Of a stretch of DNA of 64,000 nt, positions 6,603-50,061 are shown in pieces. The notes under the pieces were generated by a model that made no database searches, was not told where the DNA came from, and was given only the letters and a program-made list of their open reading frames with translations. Source of the DNA: Escherichia coli (GTDB lineage Bacteria > Pseudomonadota > Gammaproteobacteria > Enterobacterales > Enterobacteriaceae); NCBI RefSeq assembly GCF_048403405.1, contig NZ_CP183129.1; one strand, written 5' to 3'. A program made the translations under genes and the position numbers. Each line of letters begins with the position of its first letter. Within the stretch, counting starts at the first letter, position 1.

Positions 6603-7169
6603 ATGTACGAGCGTTATGCAGGTTTAATTTTTGATATGGATGGCACAATCCTGGATACGGAGCCTACGCACCGTAAAGCGTGGCGCGAAGTATTAGGGCA
6701 CTACGGTCTTCAGTACGATGTTCAGGCGATGATTGCGCTTAATGGCTCGCCCACCTGGCGTATTGCTCAGGCAATTATTGAGCTGAATCAGGCCGATCTC
6801 GACCCGCATGCGTTAGCGCGTGAAAAAACAGAAGCAGTAAGAAGTATGCTGCTGGATAGTGTCGAGCCGCTTCCTCTTGTTGAAGTGGTGAAAAGTTGGC
6901 ATGGTCGTCGCCCAATGGCTGTAGGAACGGGGAGTGAAAGCGTCATCGCTGAGGCATTGCTGGCGCACCTGGGATTACGCCGTTATTTTGACGCTGTCGT
7001 CGCTGCTGATCACGTCAAACACCATAAACCCGCGCCAGACACATTTTTGTTGTGCGCGCAGCGTATGGGCGTGCAACCGACACAGTGTGTGGTCTTTGAA
7101 GATGCCGATTTCGGTATTCAGGCGGCCCGTGCAGCAGGCATGGACGCTGTGGATGTTCGCTTGCTGTGA
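6603..7169 (+). CDS. yqaB: HAD-family sugar phosphatase (fructose-1-phosphate phosphatase)
   Basis: 188-aa ORF with HAD motif I FDMDGTILDTE near the N-terminus; conserved position. Confidence 0.9.
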   Translation: MYERYAGLIFDMDGTILDTEPTHRKAWREVLGHYGLQYDVQAMIALNGSPTWRIAQAIIELNQADLDPHALAREKTEAVRSMLLDSVEPLPLVEVVKSWHGRRPMAVGTGSESVIAEALLAHLGLRRYFDAVVAADHVKHHKPAPDTFLLCAQRMGVQPTQCVVFEDADFGIQAARAAGMDAVDVRLL

Positions 7170-9231: not shown

Positions 9232-9304
9232 AAAAAGGCCACTCGTGAGTGGCCAAAATTTCATCTCTGAATTCAGGGATGATGATAACAAATGCGCGTC
9301 TTTC
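9232..9304 (-). ncRNA. micA: MicA (SraD) small regulatory RNA
   Basis: Reverse complement of 9232-9304 reads gaaagacgcgcatttgttatcatcatccctgaattcagagatgaaattttggccactcacgagtggccttttt, which matches my recollection of the E. coli MicA sequence; lies in the gshA-luxS gap and ends in a terminator hairpin. Confidence 0.88.
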
Positions 9305-13426: not shown

Positions 13427-13762
13427 TTATATAATCGCCATCACTTTCCAGGCGAGCCCATAGGCCAGCGCACTAAGCAGTGTTGGGATGATAATGCTGC
13501 GTGTTTTATAGAAACTGGCACCCAGTACCGCGAAGCCGACCAGCGTGGGCACGAAACGGCGTGTATCGTGCATCACTTCTGGTGCGGTAGAGACAACCAG
13601 CAGAGCGCATATCGAGGCGATGCCAATGGTGTCGAGCAATATGCCTATCGCGCCACGTTTGGTTGGGCGGGCATTACCCACACGCAGGCGCAGCGGCAAA
13701 TAGCGGAAGCAATAATTCGCCGCGCCAATCAGTAACCCAAGCAGCAGAACCTCATAGCTCAT
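13427..13762 (-). CDS. ygaH: Branched-chain amino acid (valine) exporter small subunit (AzlD family)
   Basis: 111-aa hydrophobic ORF overlapping the ygaZ stop by 11 nt. Confidence 0.9.
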
Positions 13763-14612: not shown

Positions 14613-15797
14613 TTAATTTGCAGCTTCCTGACGATGAAAACCTCGCCACCAGACCAGTAAGTTAACCAGGGCAATCGTCGCGCCAGCCAGACAAACGCCA
14701 GCCCAACCGCCATGTTGCCAGGCTGAGGCTGAAATTAGCGAACCGGCGGCACCGCCAATAAAGTAGCTGGTCATGTATCCTGCGGTCAGGCGATTACGCG
14801 CATCAGGATGTATTCGATAAATTACCGTCTGGTTAGTGATATGCACGCCCTGTACGGTGAGATCCAGCACCAGGATGCCGATAATCAAGGCCAGTACGGA
14901 AGTGTGGCCAAACCAGATCGCCAGCCATGAAAGTAATAGCAGCAGCAGACCGAAAGTAGTGGTGTGGTGCGATTTACCCTTATCGGCAAAACCGCCCGCC
15001 GGACGAGCACCCAACGCTCCGGCAGCTCCCGCAAGTCCAAACAGACCAATTACACCATCGCTGTAGTTAAAAGGTGGAGCGGCAAGCAAAAAGGCCATTG
15101 AGGTCCAGAGAATGCTGAAGTTGGCAAAGGTCAGGCAGCCCAGCAACGCGCGGGTGCGCAGAATTTTATCGCTGATAAACATGCTGAAAACGGAACCAAG
15201 CAACTGTGGGTAGTTGAGGTGGGTTTCTGATTTCATTTGTGGCAGACCACGCCATAATGCCAGCGCCATCAGTGCCATTAACACCGAGGCAACCCAAAAG
15301 ACGGTGCGCCAGCCGCCGAGGTTTGCCAGCAACCCGGCAACGGTTCGTGCCAGCAAGATCCCCAACAGCAGCCCGCTCATAATGGTGCCGACCACTTTGC
15401 CGCGTTTATCCGGTGAAGCCAGCGTCGCTGCCAGCGGAACCAGAATTTGTGCCACGACTGAGAATAAACCGGTTAATGCCGTACCGAGGATCATCATCGC
15501 CAGTGACTGACTGCTGGCAGTAATTAACATGCCGCCTGCCGCCAGTAAGGTCATCGAGACAATCAGGCGGCGACGTTCAAACATATCACCGAGGGGAACA
15601 AGAAACAGCAGACCTGCGGCATAGCCCAACTGTGCGGCGGTAACAATAAAGCCTGCCGAACTGGCGGAAAGGGAAAAGTTACGCGCGATGGTGTCGAGCA
15701 ATGGCTGGGCGTAATAGTTACTGGCTACCGCCAGACCGGTGGCGATAGACATCAGCACGATCAGCGCCGGGCTAAGCTCATGATTAGGTTTAGTCAT
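14613..15797 (-). CDS. ygaY: MFS transporter (intact here)
   Basis: 394-aa uninterrupted ORF with 12-TM MFS architecture between ygaZ and proX. Confidence 0.85.
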   Translation of the reverse strand: MTKPNHELSPALIVLMSIATGLAVASNYYAQPLLDTIARNFSLSASSAGFIVTAAQLGYAAGLLFLVPLGDMFERRRLIVSMTLLAAGGMLITASSQSLAMMILGTALTGLFSVVAQILVPLAATLASPDKRGKVVGTIMSGLLLGILLARTVAGLLANLGGWRTVFWVASVLMALMALALWRGLPQMKSETHLNYPQLLGSVFSMFISDKILRTRALLGCLTFANFSILWTSMAFLLAAPPFNYSDGVIGLFGLAGAAGALGARPAGGFADKGKSHHTTTFGLLLLLLSWLAIWFGHTSVLALIIGILVLDLTVQGVHITNQTVIYRIHPDARNRLTAGYMTSYFIGGAAGSLISASAWQHGGWAGVCLAGATIALVNLLVWWRGFHRQEAAN

Positions 15798-17299: not shown

Positions 17300-18364
17300 T
17301 TACTTAATGAATGGGCGGGTCAGCAGACCGACAGGGCCAGTGGTGTACCAGCGACGGTTGCCGCGACTGCGTGAGTCGCGCCCAACGGCCTGCGTCAGGC
17401 GGTCGAGGATAATGGCGAGGATCACAATCCCGACGCCGCCAACGGTGGCAAGCCCCATATCCAGACGACCGATACCGCGCAGAACCATCTGACCCAGCCC
17501 GCCGACGGCAATCATCGAGGCGATGACTACCATAGAAAGAGCCAGCATCAGCGTCTGGTTAACGCCCGCCATAATGGTCGGCATCGCCAGCGGTAACTGA
17601 ACTTTGAACAGCATCTGGCGCGGGCTGGCACCGAATGAGCGCGAGGCTTCAATCAGATCCGCCGGAACCTGGTTAATCCCCAGAATCGTCAGACGGATAA
17701 TCGGCGGCAGAGCAAAGATGATCGTCACCACCACGCCCGGCACGTTACCGATACCAAACAGCATGACGATTGGTACCAGATAAACAAACGCTGGCGTGGT
17801 CTGCATGGCATCAAGCAGTGGACGAATAATTTTCGCCGCTCGCGGACTTCTCGCCAGCCAGATCCCCAACGGCAAACCGATGACGATACAGAACAGCAGG
17901 GCGGTTAACACCAGCGCCAGGGTAACCATGGCCTGCGACCAGGCACCGATTGCGCCGATGGCAATCAGCGAAACCAGAGTCGCCACGCCCATTCCGACCC
18001 CGGAAATCTGCCAGGCGATGAGAGCGAAAACGATAATCGCCACTGGCGCTGGCATACCCAGCAGCAATTGCTGGAAACCGTTGAGGATATAATCAACCGG
18101 AACGCGCACGCCCTGGAAGACGGGACGGAAATGGGTAACGACCCAGTCGATCCCTTCAGTGACCCAACTGTCGAGCGGGATCAGCGTTTTATGGAACGGA
18201 TCGAGAATATTAAAATGCTCGACGTTTGGCGCAGGCGTACTGGTCAGCCAGTCAGCACCACCGCCGTCAGTCGGTGCAGCAGCCGGTGTACCCCAGGCGT
18301 CTGCGGACTGTGCGGCACTGTCCGCCGCTGGCGTGGTATCCCACGGATTATTTTGATCAGCCAT
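17300..18364 (-). CDS. proW: Glycine betaine/proline ABC transporter permease
   Basis: 354-aa ORF with ABC permease TM core; overlaps proV stop by 8 nt. Confidence 0.94.
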
Positions 18365-19915: not shown

Positions 19916-20884
<969 letters not shown>

Positions 20885-23029
20885 TTAAAGTGCACAGGAG
20901 ACGCAGCCTTCAATTTCAGTGCCTTCCAGCGCCATCTGACGCAGGCGGATGTAGTAGAGCGTTTTGATACCCTTGCGCCAGGCGTAAATCTGCGCTTTGT
21001 TGATATCGCGAGTGGTGGCGGTATCGGGGAAAAACAGCGTCAGCGACAGCCCCTGATCGACATGGCGAGTCGCTTCCGCGTAGGTGTCGATGATCTTTTC
21101 TGCGCCAATTTCGTAAGCGTCCTGATACAGCGCCAGATTTTCGTTAGTCATAAATGGGGCAGGGTAGTAAACGCGTCCTGTTTTGCCCTCTTTGCGTATC
21201 TCTACTTTCGCCACAATCGGATGAATACTCGACGTGGCATGGTTGATATAAGAGATAGAACCGGTTGGCGGCACCGCCTGAAGATTCTGGTTGTAAATGC
21301 CGTAGCGCATCACGTCGTCGCGCAGCTGCGCCCACATCTCACGGGTAGGTAACGTAATACCGCTACGGGTAAACAGTTCGCCAACTTTCGCCGTTTTCGG
21401 CTGCCAGTTCCCTTGCAGATATTGGCTAAAATATTCACCACTGGCATAGCGTGACTGTTTGAACCCGGCGAAGGTTTCACCGCGTTCGCGCGCCAGCAAC
21501 ATCGAGGTACGCAGTGCGTGCCAGGTGATGGTATAGAAATAGAGATTGGTGAAATCCAGTGCTTCCGGCGAACCATAAGCGATGCCTTCTCGCGCCAGAT
21601 AGCCGTGTAAATTCATCTGCCCCAGTCCGATGGCGTGTGAGGCGGCATTTCCGGCTTCGATGGACGGCACGCTGCGGATATGACTCATATCTGACACCGC
21701 CGTTAAACCGCGCACGGCAGTCTCTACCGTGCGGGCAAAGTCGGGGGAATCCATGGTGTGGGCAATATTCAACGAACCTAAATTGCAGGAAATATCATGG
21801 CCTGTGCGGGCATAGTCGAGATTCTCGTCATACTCTGAGGCGCTGTTAACCTGCAAAATTTCTGAGCAGAGATTGCTCATATTTATGCGCCCGGCGATAG
21901 GGTTAGCACGGTTAACCGTGTCTTCATACATGATGTAGGGATAGCCGGACTCAAACTGGATTTCTGCCAGTCGCTGGAAGAAATCACGGGCGTTGATGTA
22001 TTTTTTGCGGATGCGTTCATTGGCAACCAGTTCGGCATAGTGTTCACTGATGGCGATATCAGCAAACGGCTTGCCATAAACCCGCTCAACGTCATAAGGC
22101 GAAAACAGTGCCATCTGCGCATTCTCTTTTGCCAGATGGAAAGTGATATCCGGGATCACCACGCCCAGCGACAGTGTTTTAATGCGGATTTTCTCGTCGG
22201 CATTTTCCCGTTTCGTATCGAGAAAACGCAGAATATCGGGATGATGGGCATGTAAATAGACTGCCCCAGCCCCCTGACGCGCGCCGAGCTGGTTGGCATA
22301 GGAAAATGCGTCCTCCAGCATTTTCATCACCGGAATCACGCCAGATGATTGATTTTCAATACGTTTAATTGGCGCGCCCGCTTCTCGCAGATTCGACAGC
22401 AAAAATGCCACGCCGCCGCCGCGTTTCGACAGTTGCAGTGCGGAATTTACCGCCCGGCCAATCGACTCCATGTTGTCTTCAATACGCAGCAAAAAACAGG
22501 AAACCAGTTCGCCGCGCTGCTGCTTACCACAGTTGAGGAATGTCGGTGTTGCAGGCTGAAAGCGTCCTGACAGCATCTCATCGGTCAGTTGCGTCGCCAG
22601 TGTTTCATCGCCTTGTGCCAGCATCAGCGCCACCATCGTGACTCGATCGGCAAAATCTTCCAGATAACGCTTACCGTCGAATGTCTTCAACGTATAGCTG
22701 GTGTAAAACTTCCATGCTCCGAGGAATGTCTGAAAACGAAAACCGCTGGCGTGTGCGTGGGCAAACAGCGTAATGACAAAATCGCGAGAGTAGCGGTTGA
22801 GGACGTTTTCATCATAGTAACCTTCGTTGACTAGCCAGTTCAGGCGCTGCTGCTGGCTACTGAAGGTCACACTGTTCGGACGCACATGTGTCGCCATAAA
22901 GGCGTCAACGGCCTGGCGATCTTTATCGAACTGAATGCGACCTGCGCTATCGTAAAGGTTAAGCATCGCATTCAGCGCGTGGTAATCCATCGTTTCCTGC
23001 GTCAGGCGTTCTGCGGTTGTCGTTGCCAA
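20885..23029 (-). CDS. nrdE: Class Ib ribonucleotide reductase alpha subunit
   Basis: 714-aa ORF with RNR large-subunit motifs (NLCSEI, C-terminal CVSC-type tail). Confidence 0.95.
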
Positions 23030-23412
23030 AATTCGGTTACTCCTTTACGAACGTTTTCGATATCGCTTTGCGTACCCATGAGTTCAAAGCGGTACAGCCA
23101 CGGCACGCCGCATTTCCGGGCTATCACATCTCCGGCGCGGCCATACGCCTCACCAAAGTTGCGATTACCCGAAGCAATAACGCCGCGCAGCAACACCCGG
23201 TTGTGCTCGTTGTTTAAAAAGCGAATGACCTGTCGTGGCACTGCGCCAGCCGTACCGCCGCCGCCGTAAGAGGGCACGATCAGGATGTAAGGCTCGTCTA
23301 CCTGAATCCGTTCCCGCTCATTGAGCGGGATGCGCACCGCGGGCAGACCTAAACGTTCGATAAAACGCTGCGTGTTTTCGGAGCTACTGGAAAAGTAGAC
23401 GAGCTGGCTCAT
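23002..23412 (-). CDS. nrdI: Flavodoxin-like protein NrdI
   Basis: 136-aa [24 protein letters not shown]..; overlaps nrdE start by 28 nt. Confidence 0.94.
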
Positions 23413-23654
23413 GCACTGGCCGCGTGTGGCGCTGGATGCAGACGATTGATCATGTCCGGGCGGAAACCAGACCAGCTAAGATCGCCAGCAATCACTACCG
23501 GCAACTGACGAAAGCCCTGAGCACGCAGCGCTTCCGCCGCTTCAGGAACGCGATCGACATTAATCATTTCAAAGTCAAAGCCCCGGTTTTCCATCGCCCG
23601 TTTGGTGGCGTGGCACTGAACGCAATCGTTACGAGTGTAAATAGTAATGCGCAT
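23409..23654 (-). CDS. nrdH: Glutaredoxin-like protein NrdH
   Basis: 81-aa ORF with CVQC redox motif ([22 protein letters not shown]..). Confidence 0.94.
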
Positions 23655-23727
23655 GATTCGTATTTCCGTTTAAAATGAAGATACGGCGCGATGATACGCG
23701 TCGGGTTGTCTCTCTGTTGATACAGAG

Positions 23728-23862: not shown

Positions 23863-24294
23863 TTACATCCGCATGGAAACGGCCAGACGGTTAAAACAAT
23901 TCATCAGCCCGATGGCAAACGTTAAGTCGCTGATCTCTGCTGCGCTGAAATGCTCAAGCAAAGGCTGATAAACCTCGTCTTCCGCATGGGTTCTGGCAAT
24001 TTCGGTTACCGATTCCGCCCATGCCAGCGCCGCCCGCTCGCGTTCATCAAAATGATGGCTTACGCGCCAACCTGCCAGGGCGTCCAGTTTGTGCTGTGGC
24101 ACGCCGGATTTGCGCAATGCTTTGCTGTGCATCTCCAGACAAAATGCGCAGCCGTTGATTTGCGAGACGCGCAAATAAACTAACTCCATCAACGTGGTAT
24201 CCAGCGTGCTATTTTCCAGTGCCGTTTTGGCCTGCACTAGTGCGTTATACACTGCCGGGCTAAGTTCGTAGTAAGGCTGACGTAATGTAGTCAT
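23863..24294 (-). CDS. AhpD-like / carboxymuconolactone decarboxylase family protein
   Basis: 143-aa ORF with aggaga SD; contains CxxCxxxH (GCAFCLEMH), the AhpD-type redox motif. Confidence 0.8.
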   Translation of the reverse strand: MTTLRQPYYELSPAVYNALVQAKTALENSTLDTTLMELVYLRVSQINGCAFCLEMHSKALRKSGVPQHKLDALAGWRVSHHFDERERAALAWAESVTEIARTHAEDEVYQPLLEHFSAAEISDLTFAIGLMNCFNRLAVSMRM

Positions 24295-24381
24295 ACAGTT
24301 TCTCCTCTTATTAACGCCCGCAATGTAGCACTATAATGGACTGCTAAAGAGAGCCATAAATTACCTAAAAAAGCAGACCAT

Positions 24382-25716
24382 ATGCCGCGCTATCAGGATA
24401 TCGCCCGTCAGTTAAAAACGGCTATTGAGCAAGGGGAACTGAAACCCGGCGCAAGGCTGCCTTCAAGTCGTACCTGGTCGCAGGAGCTGGGGGTGTCTCG
24501 ATCCACTGTCGAAAATGCGTATGCTGAGCTGGTGGCGCAAGGATGGCTGATCAGGCGGGGACAGGCTGGCACATTTGTCAGTGAGCGGATATATCCGCAA
24601 CAATCTACTGTACAAGTTGTAGCTTTTGCCGGTGAAAGTCAGCAACCGTTGCCATTTCAAATGGGATTACCCGCACTCGATCTCTTTCCGCGAGAGCTGT
24701 GGGCGCGGGTGATGGGGCGTCGCCTTCGTACCCAGACGCGCTTTGATTTGGCGTTAGGCGATGTCTGCGGTGAGGTGGCGTTGCGCGAGGCAATAGTTGA
24801 TTACTTACGCGTTTCACGTGGGATTGATTGTCAGCCAGAGCAGGTCTTTATCACTCACGGTTATGCGGCCTCAATAGCTTTAATTCTGCACGCGCTGGCG
24901 AAACCGGGAAACGGGATGTGGATAGAAGATCCCGGCTTTCCACTGATTCGCCCGATTGTCACTCGCCATGATGTGGAAATTTTGCCTGTGCCGGTTGATG
25001 ACAATGGACTGGATATCACAAGCGGAATACAAAATTATCCTGATGCGCGTTTTGCCCTGATAACACCAGCACACCAAAGTCCGCTGGGTGTGGCGCTCTC
25101 TTTAGCGCGCAGGCATCAGATACTGGAATGGGCAGATCGTAGTCAGGCATGGATTATTGAAGATGATTATGACAGTGAGTTTCGCTATCACGGTAAGCCG
25201 TTACCGGCGTTAAAAAGTCTCGACGCACCGCAGCGGGTAATTTATGCCGGAACATTCAGCAAAGCGCTATTTCCTGCATTGCGCTGTGCGTGGCTGGTGT
25301 TGCCGGTGAAGCAAATTGCACAATTCCGCCACCAGGCGTCACTGGCTCCATGTGCGGTACCTGTTCTATGGCAGAACACACTGGCAGACTTTCTTCGCGA
25401 GGGGCATTTCTGGCGGCATCTGAAGAAAATGCGTCAGCATTATGCTCAACGTCGGCAATGGATTGAGCAAGCGTTGACGCAGCAAGGATTTCAGGTTGTG
25501 CCGCAGAAAGGTGGTATCCAGATGGTGATCAGAATGATAGGCGATGATATTGCCCATGCGCGTAAAGCCAATGCTGCAGGCCTTGCGGTGCAGGCACTTA
25601 GCGACTGGCGTATCCGTTCAAGTGGGGAAGGTGGATTACTGCTCTCGTTTACTAATATCGTTAACGAAGGTATGGCGCGACAGGTAGCACAACAATTACG
25701 TAAAGCCTTAAGCTAA
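24382..25716 (+). CDS. MocR/GabR-type transcriptional regulator (GntR HTH fused to PLP-dependent aminotransferase-like domain)
   Basis: 444-aa ORF; N-terminal GntR-family wHTH (..SSRTWSQELGVSRSTVENAYAELVAQGW..) and large C-terminal aminotransferase-fold domain (..IYAGTFSKALFPALR.. with the expected Lys); divergent from the AhpD-like gene. Confidence 0.82.
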   Translation: MPRYQDIARQLKTAIEQGELKPGARLPSSRTWSQELGVSRSTVENAYAELVAQGWLIRRGQAGTFVSERIYPQQSTVQVVAFAGESQQPLPFQMGLPALDLFPRELWARVMGRRLRTQTRFDLALGDVCGEVALREAIVDYLRVSRGIDCQPEQVFITHGYAASIALILHALAKPGNGMWIEDPGFPLIRPIVTRHDVEILPVPVDDNGLDITSGIQNYPDARFALITPAHQSPLGVALSLARRHQILEWADRSQAWIIEDDYDSEFRYHGKPLPALKSLDAPQRVIYAGTFSKALFPALRCAWLVLPVKQIAQFRHQASLAPCAVPVLWQNTLADFLREGHFWRHLKKMRQHYAQRRQWIEQALTQQGFQVVPQKGGIQMVIRMIGDDIAHARKANAAGLAVQALSDWRIRSSGEGGLLLSFTNIVNEGMARQVAQQLRKALS

Positions 25717-32082: not shown

Positions 32083-32246
32083 TGCCGGAGAGCGGCTCCG
32101 CCTTACCCGACCTGGATTCTCGTAGGCCGGACAAGACGCAAAGCGTCGCCTCCGGCATGGTGCGCCGAATGTCGGATGCGGCGTAAACGCCTTATCCGAC
32201 CTACATTTTCGTGGGCCGGACAAGACGCGCAGCGTCGCCTCCGGCA
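32083..32246. repeat. REP/BIME cluster in the gabT-gabP intergenic region
   Basis: Four REP-like palindromic units in alternating orientation (e.g. gccggacaagacgcaaagcgtcgcctccggcatgg and gtcggatgcggcgtaaacgccttatccgacctac). Confidence 0.8.
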
Positions 32247-43658: not shown

Positions 43659-46600
43659 ATGAACAGGACCAGTCCCCATTATTGTCGCCGCTCAGTACTT
43701 TCCTTATTGATATCTGCCTTGATATATGCTCCGCCCGTGATGGCGGCCTTTACTACTAATGTTATTGGTGTGGTAAACGATGAGACTGTAGATGGCAGTC
43801 AAAAAGTAGATGAACGAGGTACAACAAATAATACTCATATTATCAACCATGGCCAGCAGGATGTTTATGGTGGGATATCTAACGGAAGTATTATTGAATC
43901 TGGTGGATATCAAGATGTAGGAAGGCATAACAATTATATGGGGCAGTCTAATAATACAACCATTAACGGGGGCAGACAGTCAATTCATGACGGAGGGATT
44001 TCCACAGGTACAATAATTGAGAGTGGCAATCAGGACGTTTATACAGGTGGTATCAGCAATGGAACGACAATTAAGGGTGGTAATTCACACATAAGTGGGG
44101 GGACTGCGAATGGAACCATCATTGATGGTGGAGGGCAGACAGTAACAACTCAGGGGCATGTTGATGGTACAACGATAAATAAGTCCGGTTATCAGGACAT
44201 CACGCAAGGAAGTCTGGCGACGAACACAACCATAAATGGTGGTCGACAGTATGTTGAACAGAGCACAGTAGAAACAACCACCATTAAAAATGGCGGTGAG
44301 CAAAGAGTATATGAGAGCCGTGCGCTGGACACGACGATTGAAGGCGGAACTCAGTCTCTGAATAGTAAGTCAACGGCAAAAAATACTCAGATCTATTCTG
44401 GTGGTACGCAAATTGTTGATTACACCAGCACCTCGGATGTTATTGAAGTTTATTCCGGTGGCGTGCTTGATGTTAGTGGTGGTACGGCAACAAATGTTAC
44501 CCAGCACGATGGTGCAATTTTAAAAACAAACACTAACGGTACGACGGTGAGCGGTACGAATAGTGAAGGGGCATTCTCCATCCACAATACCGTGGCAGAG
44601 AATGTGTTGCTGGAAAACGGTGGTCATTTAGACATAAACGCATATGGTTCGGCAAATAAGACGATTATTAAAGATAAAGGAACAATATCAGTTTTAACGA
44701 ATGCTAAAGCTGATGCGACCCGAATAGATAATGGCGGCGTTATGGATGTTGCCGGAAACGCGACAAATACCATAATTAATGGTGGCACACAGAATATTAA
44801 TAATTATGGTATTGCCACGGGCACCAATATCAACAGCGGAACACAAAATATCAAGAGCGGCGGGAAAGCTGACACGACAAATATATCCTCTGGGAGCCGG
44901 CAGGTTGTTGAGAAAGATGGTACGGCAACTGGCAGCAATATTAGCGCCGGAGGCTCGCTGATTGTCTATACCGGCGGTATTGCACATGGGGTTAACCAGG
45001 AGACGGGCAGTGCTTTAGTTGCCAACACGGGCGCAGGGACTGATATCGAAGGATACAATAAGCTCTCTCACTTCACTATTACCGGAGGTGAGGCTAATTA
45101 TGTTGTGCTGGAAAATACCGGCGAACTGACGGTAATGGCTAAAACCTCGGCGAAAAATACTACCATTGATGCTGGCGGTAAGCTGATTGTCCAGAAGGAG
45201 GCTAAAACAGATAGCACCAGACTTAATAATGGTGGCGTTCTGGAGGTTCAGGACGGTGGTGAGGCTAAGCATGTTGAGCAGCAATCCGGCGGCGCATTAA
45301 TTGCTTCCACGACCTCCGGAACACTTATCGAAGGAACCAACAGTTATGGTGATGCTTTCTACATCAGGAATTCAGAAGCTAAAAATGTAGTGCTGGAAAA
45401 CGCTGGCTCATTAACAGTCGTCACTGGTTCCCGGGCAGTTGACACGATTATTAATGCCAACGGCAAAATGGATGTTTATGGAAAAGATGTTGGTACTGTA
45501 CTTAATAGTGCTGGTACCCAAACAATATATGCCAGTGCCACTTCTGAAAAAGCAAATATCAAAGGTGGCAAGCAAACGGTATATGGTTTAGCCACTGAGG
45601 CAAATATCGAAAGTGGTGAACAAATTGTTGATGGTGGGTCAGCAGATAAAACGCACATCAATGGCGGTACGCAAACCGTTCAGAATTATGGTAAGGCGAT
45701 CAATACCGATATCGTCTCTGGCCTACAACAAATTATGGTAAACGGGACAACGGAAGGTTCCATTATTAATGGCGGTTCACAGGTAGTTAATGAGGGCGGT
45801 CTGGCTGAAAACTCGGTGCTTAATGACGGCGGCACTCTCGATGTGCGGGAGAAAGGCAGCGCAACGGGGATACAGCAAAGTAGCCAGGGCGCGTTGGTTG
45901 CAACCACCAGAGCGACGCGGGTCACAGGGACACGCGCTGATGGCGTCGCGTTCAGCATTGAGCAGGATGCGGCGAACAATATCCTGCTGGCAAATGGCGG
46001 CGTGTTAACCGTGGAGTCAGACACCACTTCCGCCAAAACACAGGTCAATGCGGGCGGGCGGGAGATCGTCAAAACAAAAGCCACTGCGACAGGCACGACG
46101 CTCACCGGCGGCGAACAAATCGTCGAGGGGGTGGCGAATGAGACAACGATTAACGACGGCGGAATACAAACAGTTTCGGCTAACGGTGAGGCAGTAAAAA
46201 CAACGATTAATGAAGGCGGTACGCTGACAGTCAACGATAATGGCAAAGCGACAGATATCATCCAGAACAGCGGTGCCGCTCTCCAGACGAGCACGGCTAA
46301 CGGTATTGAAATCAGCGGTACTCACCAGTACGGCACCTTTTCCATTGCCGGAAATTTAGCGACCAATGCGTTGCTGGAAAATGGCGGTAATTTATTGGTA
46401 TTAGCAGGTACCGAAGCCCGTGACTCCACGGTTGGCAAGGGTGGTGCAATACAAAACCTGGGTCAGGACTTCGCCACAAAGGTTAATTCTGGTGGACAAT
46501 ATACCCTCGGTCGGTCAAAAGATGAGTTTCAGGCTTTGGCCCGGGCAGAAGATCTACAGATCGCTGGCGGGACGGCAATCGTCTACGCAGGTACGCTGGC

Positions 46601-48233
46601 GGATGCATCGGTCAGTGGCGCGACAGGAAGCCTGTCGTTAATGACGCCACGGGATAATGTTACGCCAGTTAAACTTGAAGGGGTGGTCCGGATTACCGAT
46701 AGCGCGACATTAACTATCGGAAATGGCGTCGATACGACGCTTGCCGACCTGACGGCTGCCAGTCGGGGCAGTGTCTGGCTTAACAGCAATAATTCCTGTG
46801 CAGGCACCAGCAACTGCGAATATAGAGTAAACAGTTTACTCCTCAACGACGGTGATGTTTATTTATCAGCACAAACAGCAGCGCCTGCCACAACTAACGG
46901 TATCTACAATACGCTGACCACCAGTGAACTTTCCGGCAGCGGTAATTTCTACCTGCATACCAACGTTGCAGGCTCCCGGGGCGATCAACTGGTCGTCAAC
47001 AACAACGCCACTGGCAATTTTAAAATCTTTGTTCAGGATACCGGCGTCAGCCCTCAGTCTGACGACGCGATGACGCTGGTGAAAACAGGGGGAGGGGATG
47101 CTTCGTTTACGCTGGGTAATACCGGCGGTTTCGTTGATCTTGGGACCTATGAGTATGTCCTGAAAAGCGACGGCAACAGCAACTGGAACCTGACCAATGA
47201 TGTCAAACCCAACCCGGACCCCAACCCAAATCCGAAACCGGATCCAAAACCAGACCCAAAACCGGATCCGAAACCAGACCCGACTCCCGATCCAACGCCG
47301 ACACCCGTCCCGGAGAAACGCATCACGCCTTCTACGGCAGCCGTACTCAATATGGCAGCAACATTACCGTTGGTCTTTGATGCTGAGCTAAACAGTATTC
47401 GCGAGCGGTTGAACATAATGAAAGCGAGTCCACACAACAATAATGTCTGGGGGACGACGTATAACACCCGTAATAATGTCACCACCGATGCGGGTGCCGG
47501 GTTTGAGCAGACGCTGACCGGAATGACGGTGGGGATCGATAGCCGTAATGATATTCCTGAGGGGATTGCGACGCTGGGCGCTTTTATGGGTTATTCCCAT
47601 TCACATATTGGTTTTGATCGTGGAGGGCATGGCAGTGTGGGCAGTTATTCTCTGGGGGGCTATGCCAGCTGGGAACATGAAAGTGGTTTCTATCTGGACG
47701 GTATCGTGAAGCTGAACCGCTTTGAAAGTAACGTAGCCGGTAAAATGAGCAGCGGTGGAGCCGCCAACGGCAGTTATCGCAGCAACGGGCTGGGCGGTCA
47801 CATTGAAACCGGGATGCGATTTACCGATGGTAACTGGAACCTGACGCCGTATGCATCGTTAACGGGGTTCACCGCTGATAACCCCGAATATCATTTATCC
47901 AATGGCATGGAATCGAAATCAGTCGATACCCGTAGTATATATCGTGAACTGGGCGCAACGCTGAGTTACAACATGCGTCTGGGGAACGGCATGGAAGTTG
48001 AGCCGTGGCTGAAGGCGGCTGTGCGCAAAGAATTTGTCGATGATAACCGGGTGAAAGTGAATAATGACGGTAATTTTGTCAATGATTTGTCGGGCAGACG
48101 TGGAATATACCAGGCAGGTATTAAAGCCTCATTCAGCAGTACGTTAAGCGGACATCTCGGGGTGGGGTATAGCCATGGTGCCGGTGTGGAATCCCCGTGG
48201 AACGCGGTGGCTGGTGCGAACTGGTCGTTCTGA
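43659..48233 (+). CDS. ypjA: Adhesin-like autotransporter (type Va secretion) with repetitive passenger domain
   Basis: ORF track 43530-48233; likely start ATG 43659 (or 43650) giving signal peptide MNRTSPHYCRRSVLSLLISALIYAPPVMA; Gly/Thr/Asn-rich repetitive passenger, Pro-rich PNPDPNPNPKPDPKPDP linker (about 47200-47310) and C-terminal beta-barrel ending ..AGANWSF. Confidence 0.75.
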   Translation: MNRTSPHYCRRSVLSLLISALIYAPPVMAAFTTNVIGVVNDETVDGSQKVDERGTTNNTHIINHGQQDVYGGISNGSIIESGGYQDVGRHNNYMGQSNNTTINGGRQSIHDGGISTGTIIESGNQDVYTGGISNGTTIKGGNSHISGGTANGTIIDGGGQTVTTQGHVDGTTINKSGYQDITQGSLATNTTINGGRQYVEQSTVETTTIKNGGEQRVYESRALDTTIEGGTQSLNSKSTAKNTQIYSGGTQIVDYTSTSDVIEVYSGGVLDVSGGTATNVTQHDGAILKTNTNGTTVSGTNSEGAFSIHNTVAENVLLENGGHLDINAYGSANKTIIKDKGTISVLTNAKADATRIDNGGVMDVAGNATNTIINGGTQNINNYGIATGTNINSGTQNIKSGGKADTTNISSGSRQVVEKDGTATGSNISAGGSLIVYTGGIAHGVNQETGSALVANTGAGTDIEGYNKLSHFTITGGEANYVVLENTGELTVMAKTSAKNTTIDAGGKLIVQKEAKTDSTRLNNGGVLEVQDGGEAKHVEQQSGGALIASTTSGTLIEGTNSYGDAFYIRNSEAKNVVLENAGSLTVVTGSRAVDTIINANGKMDVYGKDVGTVLNSAGTQTIYASATSEKANIKGGKQTVYGLATEANIESGEQIVDGGSADKTHINGGTQTVQNYGKAINTDIVSGLQQIMVNGTTEGSIINGGSQVVNEGGLAENSVLNDGGTLDVREKGSATGIQQSSQGALVATTRATRVTGTRADGVAFSIEQDAANNILLANGGVLTVESDTTSAKTQVNAGGREIVKTKATATGTTLTGGEQIVEGVANETTINDGGIQTVSANGEAVKTTINEGGTLTVNDNGKATDIIQNSGAALQTSTANGIEISGTHQYGTFSIAGNLATNALLENGGNLLVLAGTEARDSTVGKGGAIQNLGQDFATKVNSGGQYTLGRSKDEFQALARAEDLQIAGGTAIVYAGTLADASVSGATGSLSLMTPRDNVTPVKLEGVVRITDSATLTIGNGVDTTLADLTAASRGSVWLNSNNSCAGTSNCEYRVNSLLLNDGDVYLSAQTAAPATTNGIYNTLTTSELSGSGNFYLHTNVAGSRGDQLVVNNNATGNFKIFVQDTGVSPQSDDAMTLVKTGGGDASFTLGNTGGFVDLGTYEYVLKSDGNSNWNLTNDVKPNPDPNPNPKPDPKPDPKPDPKPDPTPDPTPTPVPEKRITPSTAAVLNMAATLPLVFDAELNSIRERLNIMKASPHNNNVWGTTYNTRNNVTTDAGAGFEQTLTGMTVGIDSRNDIPEGIATLGAFMGYSHSHIGFDRGGHGSVGSYSLGGYASWEHESGFYLDGIVKLNRFESNVAGKMSSGGAANGSYRSNGLGGHIETGMRFTDGNWNLTPYASLTGFTADNPEYHLSNGMESKSVDTRSIYRELGATLSYNMRLGNGMEVEPWLKAAVRKEFVDDNRVKVNNDGNFVNDLSGRRGIYQAGIKASFSSTLSGHLGVGYSHGAGVESPWNAVAGANWSF

Positions 48234-48244
48234 CCATCAACGAA

Positions 48245-48267
48245 AAAGCCCACATCTGTGGGCTTTC
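48245..48267 (+). terminator. Candidate intrinsic terminator after ypjA
   Basis: aaaaagcccacatctgtgggcttt hairpin (8-bp stem) 12 nt after the ypjA stop. Confidence 0.45.
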
Positions 48268-48393
48268 ATATCACCAAGAGCCGCGGCTCCTTTGCGTATC
48301 CTTTTATGTCTCCTCACCGTCTGGTCGGTGTCTTGCTGAGACTTCTAACTTCCTGTTTTTGTTGGTGTTGTCCTTGCACCGTCCAATCATGAT

Positions 48394-48756
48394 TGGTGGA
48401 GCTGGCGGGAGTTGAACCCGCGTCCGAAATTCCTACGTCCTCGGTACTACATGCTTAGTCAGTCTTTACATTCGCTTGCCAGCTGCGGACGGACACGCCA
48501 CTAACAAACTAGCCTGATTAAGTTTTAACGCTTCAACCCCAGGCAGGGCTTCCACGCGATCTCTTTTGGGTTTGACCTCTCTTGATCCCCGTCCTAAGAG
48601 CGGAGGCTAGGGAGAGAGGGCTCTAAGCAGGTTATTAAGCTGCTAAAGCGTAGTTTTCGTCGTTTGCGACTATTTTTTGCGGCTTTTTACGAGGCCAACC
48701 GCCCCTCGGCATGCACCTTGGGTTTCGCAAATCCCGTCGAATCCAGAATCAGCCCC
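48394..48756 (-). ncRNA. ssrA: tmRNA (SsrA, 10Sa RNA)
   Basis: 363 nt; minus-strand sequence begins ggggctgattctggattcgacggg and ends ..ctcccgccagctccacca; contains the tag ORF gcaaacgacgaaaactacgctttagcagcttaa (ANDENYALAA). Confidence 0.97.
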
Positions 48757-49584: not shown

Positions 49585-50061
49585 ATGATATTATTTGTTG
49601 GATTTTTGTTGATGGAAATTGTTATGCCTCAGATTAGCCGGACCGCACTGGTACCCTACAGCGCGGAGCAAATGTATCAGTTAGTGAATGACGTTCAGTC
49701 TTATCCTCAGTTTTTGCCGGGTTGTACCGGAAGTCGGATTCTGGAGTCCACTCCTGGGCAGATGACTGCGGCGGTAGATGTCTCTAAGGCTGGGATCAGC
49801 AAAACGTTTACTACCCGCAACCAGTTGACCAGTAACCAAAGTATTCTTATGAATCTGGTGGATGGGCCGTTCAAGAAATTGATCGGTGGATGGAAGTTTA
49901 CGCCGCTGAGCCAGGAGGCGTGTCGTATCGAGTTTCATCTCGATTTTGAGTTTACCAATAAGTTGATTGAACTCGCCTTTGGTCGCGTGTTTAAAGAGCT
50001 GGCGGCTAATATGGTCCAGGCTTTTACGGTTCGTGCGAAAGAGGTTTACAGTGCCAGGTAA
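49585..50061 (+). CDS. ratA: Ribosome association toxin RatA (SRPBCC/polyketide cyclase-like)
   Basis: 158-aa ORF; conserved core from [21 protein letters not shown].. (alternative ATG at 49624); divergent from smpB as in E. coli. Confidence 0.85.

Follow-up and report, generated by a model that had tools for sequence, protein, structure and literature searches.

The nrdI/nrdE overlap of Escherichia coli: an ordinary operon junction with a conserved TTG start codon

The nrdI/nrdE overlap in the stretch of Escherichia coli chromosome studied here (the window, 64 kb in full) is real, previously annotated and ordinary. It is very probably the usual junction of an annotated nrdHIEF operon, in which nrdE starts at a TTG codon lying inside nrdI and takes its AAGGAG Shine-Dalgarno (SD) sequence from NrdI codons. 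Where a long overlap comes with a start other than ATG, this usually points to a mis-called start codon; the main value of the analysis is as quality control, in that the annotated start is upheld by comparative evidence. What is new is only an explanation for the conservation of the rare nrdE start codon; the known picture of ribonucleotide reductase and of operon structure is unchanged.

The window was compared with strain 4621 (NZ_CP103479.1), from which it differs by 5 mismatches in 64,000 positions, and RefSeq coordinates therefore map onto it one to one. A sequence-only reading of the window had listed six gene overlaps and called them ordinary. All six have exactly the lengths given there in window coordinates, recur in RefSeq strain 4621 and in the reference annotation of K-12 MG1655, and are thus ordinary in the sense of being already annotated. 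Of 5,426 complete E. coli genomes, 5,421 match the 4.5-kb region around the nrdI/nrdE junction, and six do so at 100%. The junction region of E. coli P276M (NZ_CP044293.1, 1177288-1177395) is just 83.5% identical, the sole such case among complete genomes labelled "E. coli", and this segment is annotated as a hypothetical protein.

The operon and the nrdI/nrdE junction

The gene set and order of a class Ib operon, nrdH, nrdI, nrdE and nrdF, are found on one strand of the window, with a gap of 9 nt between nrdE and nrdF (Table 1). The first three genes were identified by NCBIfam models, whereas nrdF and the gene order were taken from the RefSeq annotation. NrdE scores 1269 bits against TIGR04170 (cut-off 750), with residues 15-714 covered, and NrdI matches TIGR00333 at 9e-62 over residues 5-131. 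PDB entry 3N39 is E. coli NrdI. The NrdI chain in 3N39, 3N3A and 3N3B stops at ...EFWQRQP (residue 133) and lacks QNA, the three residues that close the 136-aa gene product.

The status of nrdHIEF as an operon rests on published work. The sequence-only reading held that the overlaps support its operon calls, and the annotations concur. From the promoter-like site ahead of nrdH to the end of nrdF, a consensus scan of the coding strand found no terminator-like site. It picked up one further promoter-like match on that strand, inside nrdE; this match is weak (9 of 12), and shuffled sequences have more of the kind. The scan thus agrees with a putative single nrdHIEF transcript.

K-12 MG1655 (b2673-b2676) agrees with the window in everything of substance: in gene content and order, in the overlaps of 4 nt (nrdH/nrdI) and 28 nt (nrdI/nrdE), and in the TTG start. 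Its nrdI/nrdE overlap differs from that of the window by one base (AAC/AAT), which is silent in NrdI and exchanges Arg8 and Cys8 in NrdE. The window differs from K-12 further in having two additional genes between nrdH and ygaM (23863-25716), one for a carboxymuconolactone decarboxylase family protein and the other for the MocR-type regulator pdxR. In K-12, which lacks both, 247 nt separate the end of ygaM from nrdH. Two mechanically called open reading frames on the plus strand (22886-23269, 127 aa; 23017-23217, 66 aa) run antisense to the nrdI/nrdE junction; they have no annotation and show no sign of being genes.

At the junction itself, both genes read along the minus strand, nrdI ending with a TGA at 23004-23002 and nrdE running in the -1 frame relative to it. 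In the nrdI frame the overlap comprises the last base of codon 128, codons 129-136 and the stop; in the nrdE frame it comprises codons 1-9 and the first base of codon 10. The TTG lies 25 nt upstream of the nrdI stop codon. Looking for SD sequences inside the upstream genes had been proposed as a check on the overlaps, and for nrdE such a sequence is present within nrdI. Its predicted duplex with the 16S rRNA tail has an energy of -8.2 kcal/mol, the tenth strongest among the 59 annotated starts of the window, and only 1% of the 2,435 internal NTG triplets in window genes have an upstream SD match as strong. With 10 nt between SD and TTG, the spacing is among the longer ones normally seen. Two in-frame start candidates precede the DYHALN motif of the window NrdE, the TTG and the ATG at Met14. 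An open frame that reaches back over the upstream stop codon is within chance, while a conserved TTG with a conserved SD is beyond it.

Table 1. Positions in the window of the nrdHIEF genes, the elements of the nrdI/nrdE junction and the gene overlaps
Feature	Position	Strand	Description
nrdH	23409-23654	-	Glutaredoxin-like protein, 81 aa; NF007657, 1e-56
nrdI	23002-23412	-	Flavoprotein assembling the NrdF cofactor, 136 aa; TIGR00333
nrdE	20885-23029	-	Class Ib ribonucleotide reductase alpha subunit, 714 aa; TIGR04170
nrdF	19916-20875	-	Class Ib reductase beta subunit; RefSeq annotation
Promoter-like site upstream of nrdH	23691-23720	-	Consensus match only
nrdI/nrdE overlap	23002-23029	-	28 nt, out of frame; identical overlap in RefSeq strain 4621 and K-12
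nrdE start TTG	23027-23029	-	Third base of NrdI Phe128 (TTT) and first two of Trp129 (TGG)
nrdE SD AAGGAG	23040-23045	-	NrdI codons Lys123-Gly124-Val125 (AAA GGA GTA); 10 nt upstream of the TTG
Alternative nrdE ATG (Met14)	22988-22990	-	In frame, 11 nt after the nrdI stop; would abolish the overlap
nrdH/nrdI overlap	23409-23412	-	4 nt, ATGA; nrdI without SD, -1.7 kcal/mol
proV/proW overlap	18357-18364	-	8 nt; proW ATG, SD very strong, -12.6 kcal/mol, no alternative start
ygaZ/ygaH overlap	13752-13762	-	11 nt; ygaH ATG with AAGGAG, -7.7 kcal/mol
yqaB/yqaA overlap	7166-7169	+	4 nt, GTGA; SD weak, -3.4 kcal/mol
yfiR/dgcN overlap	61956-61966	-	11 nt, or 8 given tandem ATGATG; SD weak, -3.5 kcal/mol
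ratA/yfjF overlap	50051-50061	+	11 nt; yfjF GTG with GAGG SD, -6.5 kcal/mol

Conservation of the start codon and its Shine-Dalgarno sequence

We surveyed 80 loci with the closest NrdE relatives, one genome per species, from Enterobacteriaceae, Erwiniaceae, Yersiniaceae, Pectobacteriaceae, Morganellaceae, Halomonadaceae, one alphaproteobacterial MAG and several actinobacterial families. nrdI lies immediately upstream of nrdE in all 80. A TTG at the homologous position and in frame with nrdE is present in 68 of them, including Enterobacterales, Halomonadaceae and Actinobacteria, with SD duplex energies of -6.1 to -8.3 kcal/mol, and in 43 of the 80 it is the sole ATG, GTG or TTG between the upstream stop and DYHALN. 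The loci share descent, so fewer independent events lie behind these counts than the figures suggest; what carries the argument is the saturation of other synonymous sites, together with lineages of the opposite codon bias.

The sequence-only reading had itself named the observation that would speak against the overlap, namely a conserved start further downstream. The overlap survives this comparison, given that a start codon at the Met14 position occurs in only 6 of 80 loci against the 68 with the TTG. A second Escherichia genome in the survey has AGG at that position and hence no start codon. The chain sequence of Salmonella NrdE in PDB 1PEM, which begins MATTTPERVMQETMDYH, follows the gene annotation and hence lends no independent support to the start. 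Jordan et al. reportedly carried out N-terminal sequencing of the Salmonella protein in 1994.

The nrdE start falls within nrdI in 73 of the 80 loci. Overlap lengths span 7 to 52 nt, with 33 loci at 28 nt, 15 at 19 nt and 9 at 31 nt; the frame relation between the two genes is constant across loci and the position of the start is fixed, while the nrdI stop shifts. Three loci are odd in nrdH or nrdI. Enterobacteriaceae bacterium RIT691 (L026, 1499-1513) has an early nrdI stop straight after FWQR and a 13-nt overlap, and in Cedecea sulfonylureivorans (L031, about 1118-1232) the nrdH frame extends 115 nt into nrdI. In Shimwellia pseudoproteus (L042, about 1111-1525), NrdI aligns in its C-terminal part only and the nrdI start was not found. 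Each of the three could be a real variant, a pseudogene or an assembly error.

The codon counts show selection on the synonymous sites that build the nrdE start and its SD. The NrdI motif Gly-Val/Leu-x-x-Phe-Trp is kept in nearly all of the 80 loci. Its Phe is encoded by TTT in 69 of 74 loci, where the codon usage of the same genes predicts 33.6, and the Gly of the SD by GGA in 68 of 79, where 6.4 are expected. TTT stands at this Phe even in the high-GC actinobacteria Dietzia, Cellulomonas and Nocardia, in which it otherwise accounts for 0-3% of Phe codons, and GGAG is invariant across 30 Enterobacteriaceae sequences.

The exceptions are informative. Five loci have TTC at the Phe (two Photorhabdus, Morganella, a Mycobacterium and a Rhodococcus), and in all five nrdE starts elsewhere and the GGA is absent. 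Phe-Trp is nevertheless retained in four of them, the motif match in the Rhodococcus being uncertain. It follows that Phe-Trp is kept for NrdI itself, and TTT and GGA for nrdE. One locus has TTA-TGG (Leu-Trp) with an ATG start for nrdE, and four Brevibacterium loci have CTG-TGY (Leu-Cys) with a GTG start. As long as Phe-Trp is required in NrdI, a start codon at this place can only be YTG, that is TTG or CTG. This explains why the rare TTG start has been frozen across distant bacteria. An overlapping frame can in this way hold an uncommon start codon fixed between lineages that are very far apart.

Conservation within the shared stretch, measured at third positions across 30 Enterobacteriaceae sequences, points the same way. 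It is 0.58 in flanking nrdI and 0.59 in flanking nrdE, and rises inside the overlap to 0.95 at nrdI-frame and 0.83 at nrdE-frame third positions; NrdE codons 10-14, just past the nrdI stop, reach 0.64 over all positions. Values as high as those inside the overlap would be expected if both frames are translated. Since the family models cover NrdE from residue 15 and NrdI up to residue 131, the overlap after Trp129 is made up of the variable tails of both proteins. The two frames would be able to coexist there because only the variable C-terminal tail of NrdI and N-terminal tail of NrdE are involved.

Initiation of nrdE and competing explanations

Ribosomes probably bind the exposed, strong nrdE SD and begin nrdE at the TTG. 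Coupling to nrdI translation may contribute but is probably not required, and nrdI itself, with its ATGA junction and no SD, probably depends on reinitiation after nrdH. The overlaps are consistent with translational coupling, as had been proposed from the sequence, and do not go further than that. For nrdE, independent SD-driven initiation seems at least as likely as coupling to nrdI, since it fits a strong and conserved SD, the lack of inhibitory RNA structure and a variable distance from stop to start.

Coupling has been explained by two accepted models, unfolding of RNA structure and ribosome scanning or reinitiation (PMC12548453). Under the first of them, the nrdE site would be buried and opened only by ribosomes translating nrdI, which is very improbable here. 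No RNA structure was found over the nrdE ribosome-binding site: the 126-nt junction folds worse than its shuffles (z = +1.17), 181 of 200 of which fold at least as well as the junction. The consensus fold of eight genera reaches only -3.4 kcal/mol with a covariation term of -0.06, that is, essentially no covariation, and no Rfam family was found at the junction. Obligate termination-reinitiation, in which the ribosome ends nrdI, backs up 25 nt and restarts at the TTG, would make NrdE output dependent on nrdI translation. The position of the nrdE start inside nrdI in most loci speaks for it, as does the coupling documented at -38 and -50 nt in the coat and lysis genes of phages fr and MS2 (PMC12548453). 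We nevertheless consider it unlikely, because the distance from stop to start is not conserved, a strong nrdE SD is under selection, and nrdI, probably weakly translated for want of an SD, would leave nrdE short of ribosomes. In reporter pairs tested in E. coli, reinitiation also becomes steeply less efficient with distance, as measured for positive spacing (PMC10666635). The nrdI/nrdE junction has neither the 1- or 4-nt overlap nor the separation by a few nucleotides that mark termination-reinitiation.

The overlap would vanish if the start were misannotated and nrdE began at the Met14 ATG (22990). This ATG has an AGGA-type SD, weaker than that of the TTG at -4.3 kcal/mol, in the window, E. 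albertii and one Enterobacter MAG. Salmonella NrdE (PDB 1PEM) likewise carries a Met here, the very next residue is where the NrdE family model sets in, and long overlaps are generally enriched for mis-called starts. Against this stand the scarcity of a Met14 start among the loci, even within Escherichia, the many loci in which the TTG is the only in-frame start, and the selection on TTT and GGA, which would be unexplained if the TTG were unused; misannotation has in our judgement only a very slim chance of being right. Use of both starts in E. coli, giving full-length NrdE along with a minor form that lacks the first 13 residues, is somewhat easier to entertain and still quite improbable. SD-like sequences do precede both codons, that of the ATG being of moderate strength in E. 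coli and Salmonella; as the ATG is not conserved even within Escherichia, the short form would not be a selected feature. A programmed -1 frameshift in the overlap, yielding an NrdI-NrdE fusion protein, was rejected as having practically no chance. The nrdE frame is indeed -1 relative to nrdI, but between 23002 and 23031 the nrdI frame offers no slippery heptamer of the form X XXY YYZ, there is no stimulatory structure downstream, and the conserved SD and start codon fully account for the junction.

Initiation at the TTG from its own SD thus remains the reading that we prefer. One may go further and regard the nrdE start inside nrdI not as a frozen accident but as a device favoured by selection for setting expression, holding the NrdI:NrdE ratio constant across Gammaproteobacteria and Actinobacteria. 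Phe-Trp would then lock a weak TTG, with the SD fixed 10 nt upstream within NrdI codons, and ribosomes reaching the end of nrdI would briefly block the nrdE site or supply it. This proposal is speculative and we think it doubtful. A full-text literature search for the nrdI/nrdE overlap or the TTG start found no description of either.

Other features of the window and comparison with known systems

The overlaps proV/proW, ygaZ/ygaH, yqaB/yqaA, yfiR/dgcN and ratA/yfjF were compared with the K-12 and strain 4621 annotations and for SD strength (Table 1). The last of these is a seventh overlap, absent from the earlier list and present in the K-12 annotation too. The 5' end of ratA is 39 nt longer in the K-12 annotation than in RefSeq strain 4621. 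Thirty sequences retain the ATGA of nrdH/nrdI (the window and 29 of loci L003-L032), and in most other Enterobacterales loci gaps of 1-13 nt stand in its place; only nrdH/nrdI has the look of a classical termination-reinitiation junction. The commonest overlaps in E. coli are of -4, -1 and -8 nt, and in Haloferax volcanii longer overlaps are stated to be rare (PMC10666635). Given the E. coli lengths, the 28-nt nrdI/nrdE overlap was the sole case in need of a check for a mis-called start.

Several other features of the window are recorded here. At the position of the K-12 ygaY pseudogene there is an intact MFS transporter gene (14613-15797, minus strand; 394 aa). Besides nrdE, gshA (7667) has the only TTG start among the 59 annotated window genes, and yfjD (55573-55575, minus strand) has a CTG start in RefSeq, with the same gene length in K-12. 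The region 40437-48756 holds ssrA (tmRNA, 48394-48756), directly followed by the ypjA autotransporter gene, a recombinase fragment, ypjCB and a tRNA-Ile gene. The 22-kb cryptic prophage CP4-57 adjoins ssrA in K-12, and the window strain appears to be without most of it. Rfam matches on the minus strand include the MicA sRNA between gshA and luxS (9233-9304) and naRNA4/CssrE between gabP and gabT (32125-32201).

Palleja et al. are said to have traced long annotated overlaps, in 2008, to mis-called start codons. Like such cases, the nrdI/nrdE overlap exceeds 20 nt, involves a start codon other than ATG and is followed by an ATG a few codons on. Unlike them, it has an upstream TTG that is conserved and a downstream ATG that is not, which is the reverse of what a misannotated start would leave.

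Short overlaps of the ATGA/TGATG termination-reinitiation type (Huber et al. 2019 and 2023; PMC6728339, PMC10666635) likewise join operon genes on one strand whose reading frames overlap, and nrdH/nrdI and yqaB/yqaA are exactly of this kind. The nrdI/nrdE junction differs in that its start lies well upstream of the stop, has a strong SD of its own and stands at a distance from the stop that varies between species. The coat and lysis genes of phages fr and MS2 (-38 to -50 nt) resemble it in having a downstream start tens of nucleotides inside the upstream gene and out of frame with it (PMC12548453). The downstream site in these phages, however, is weak or structured and depends on termination, whereas the nrdE site is strong and unstructured.
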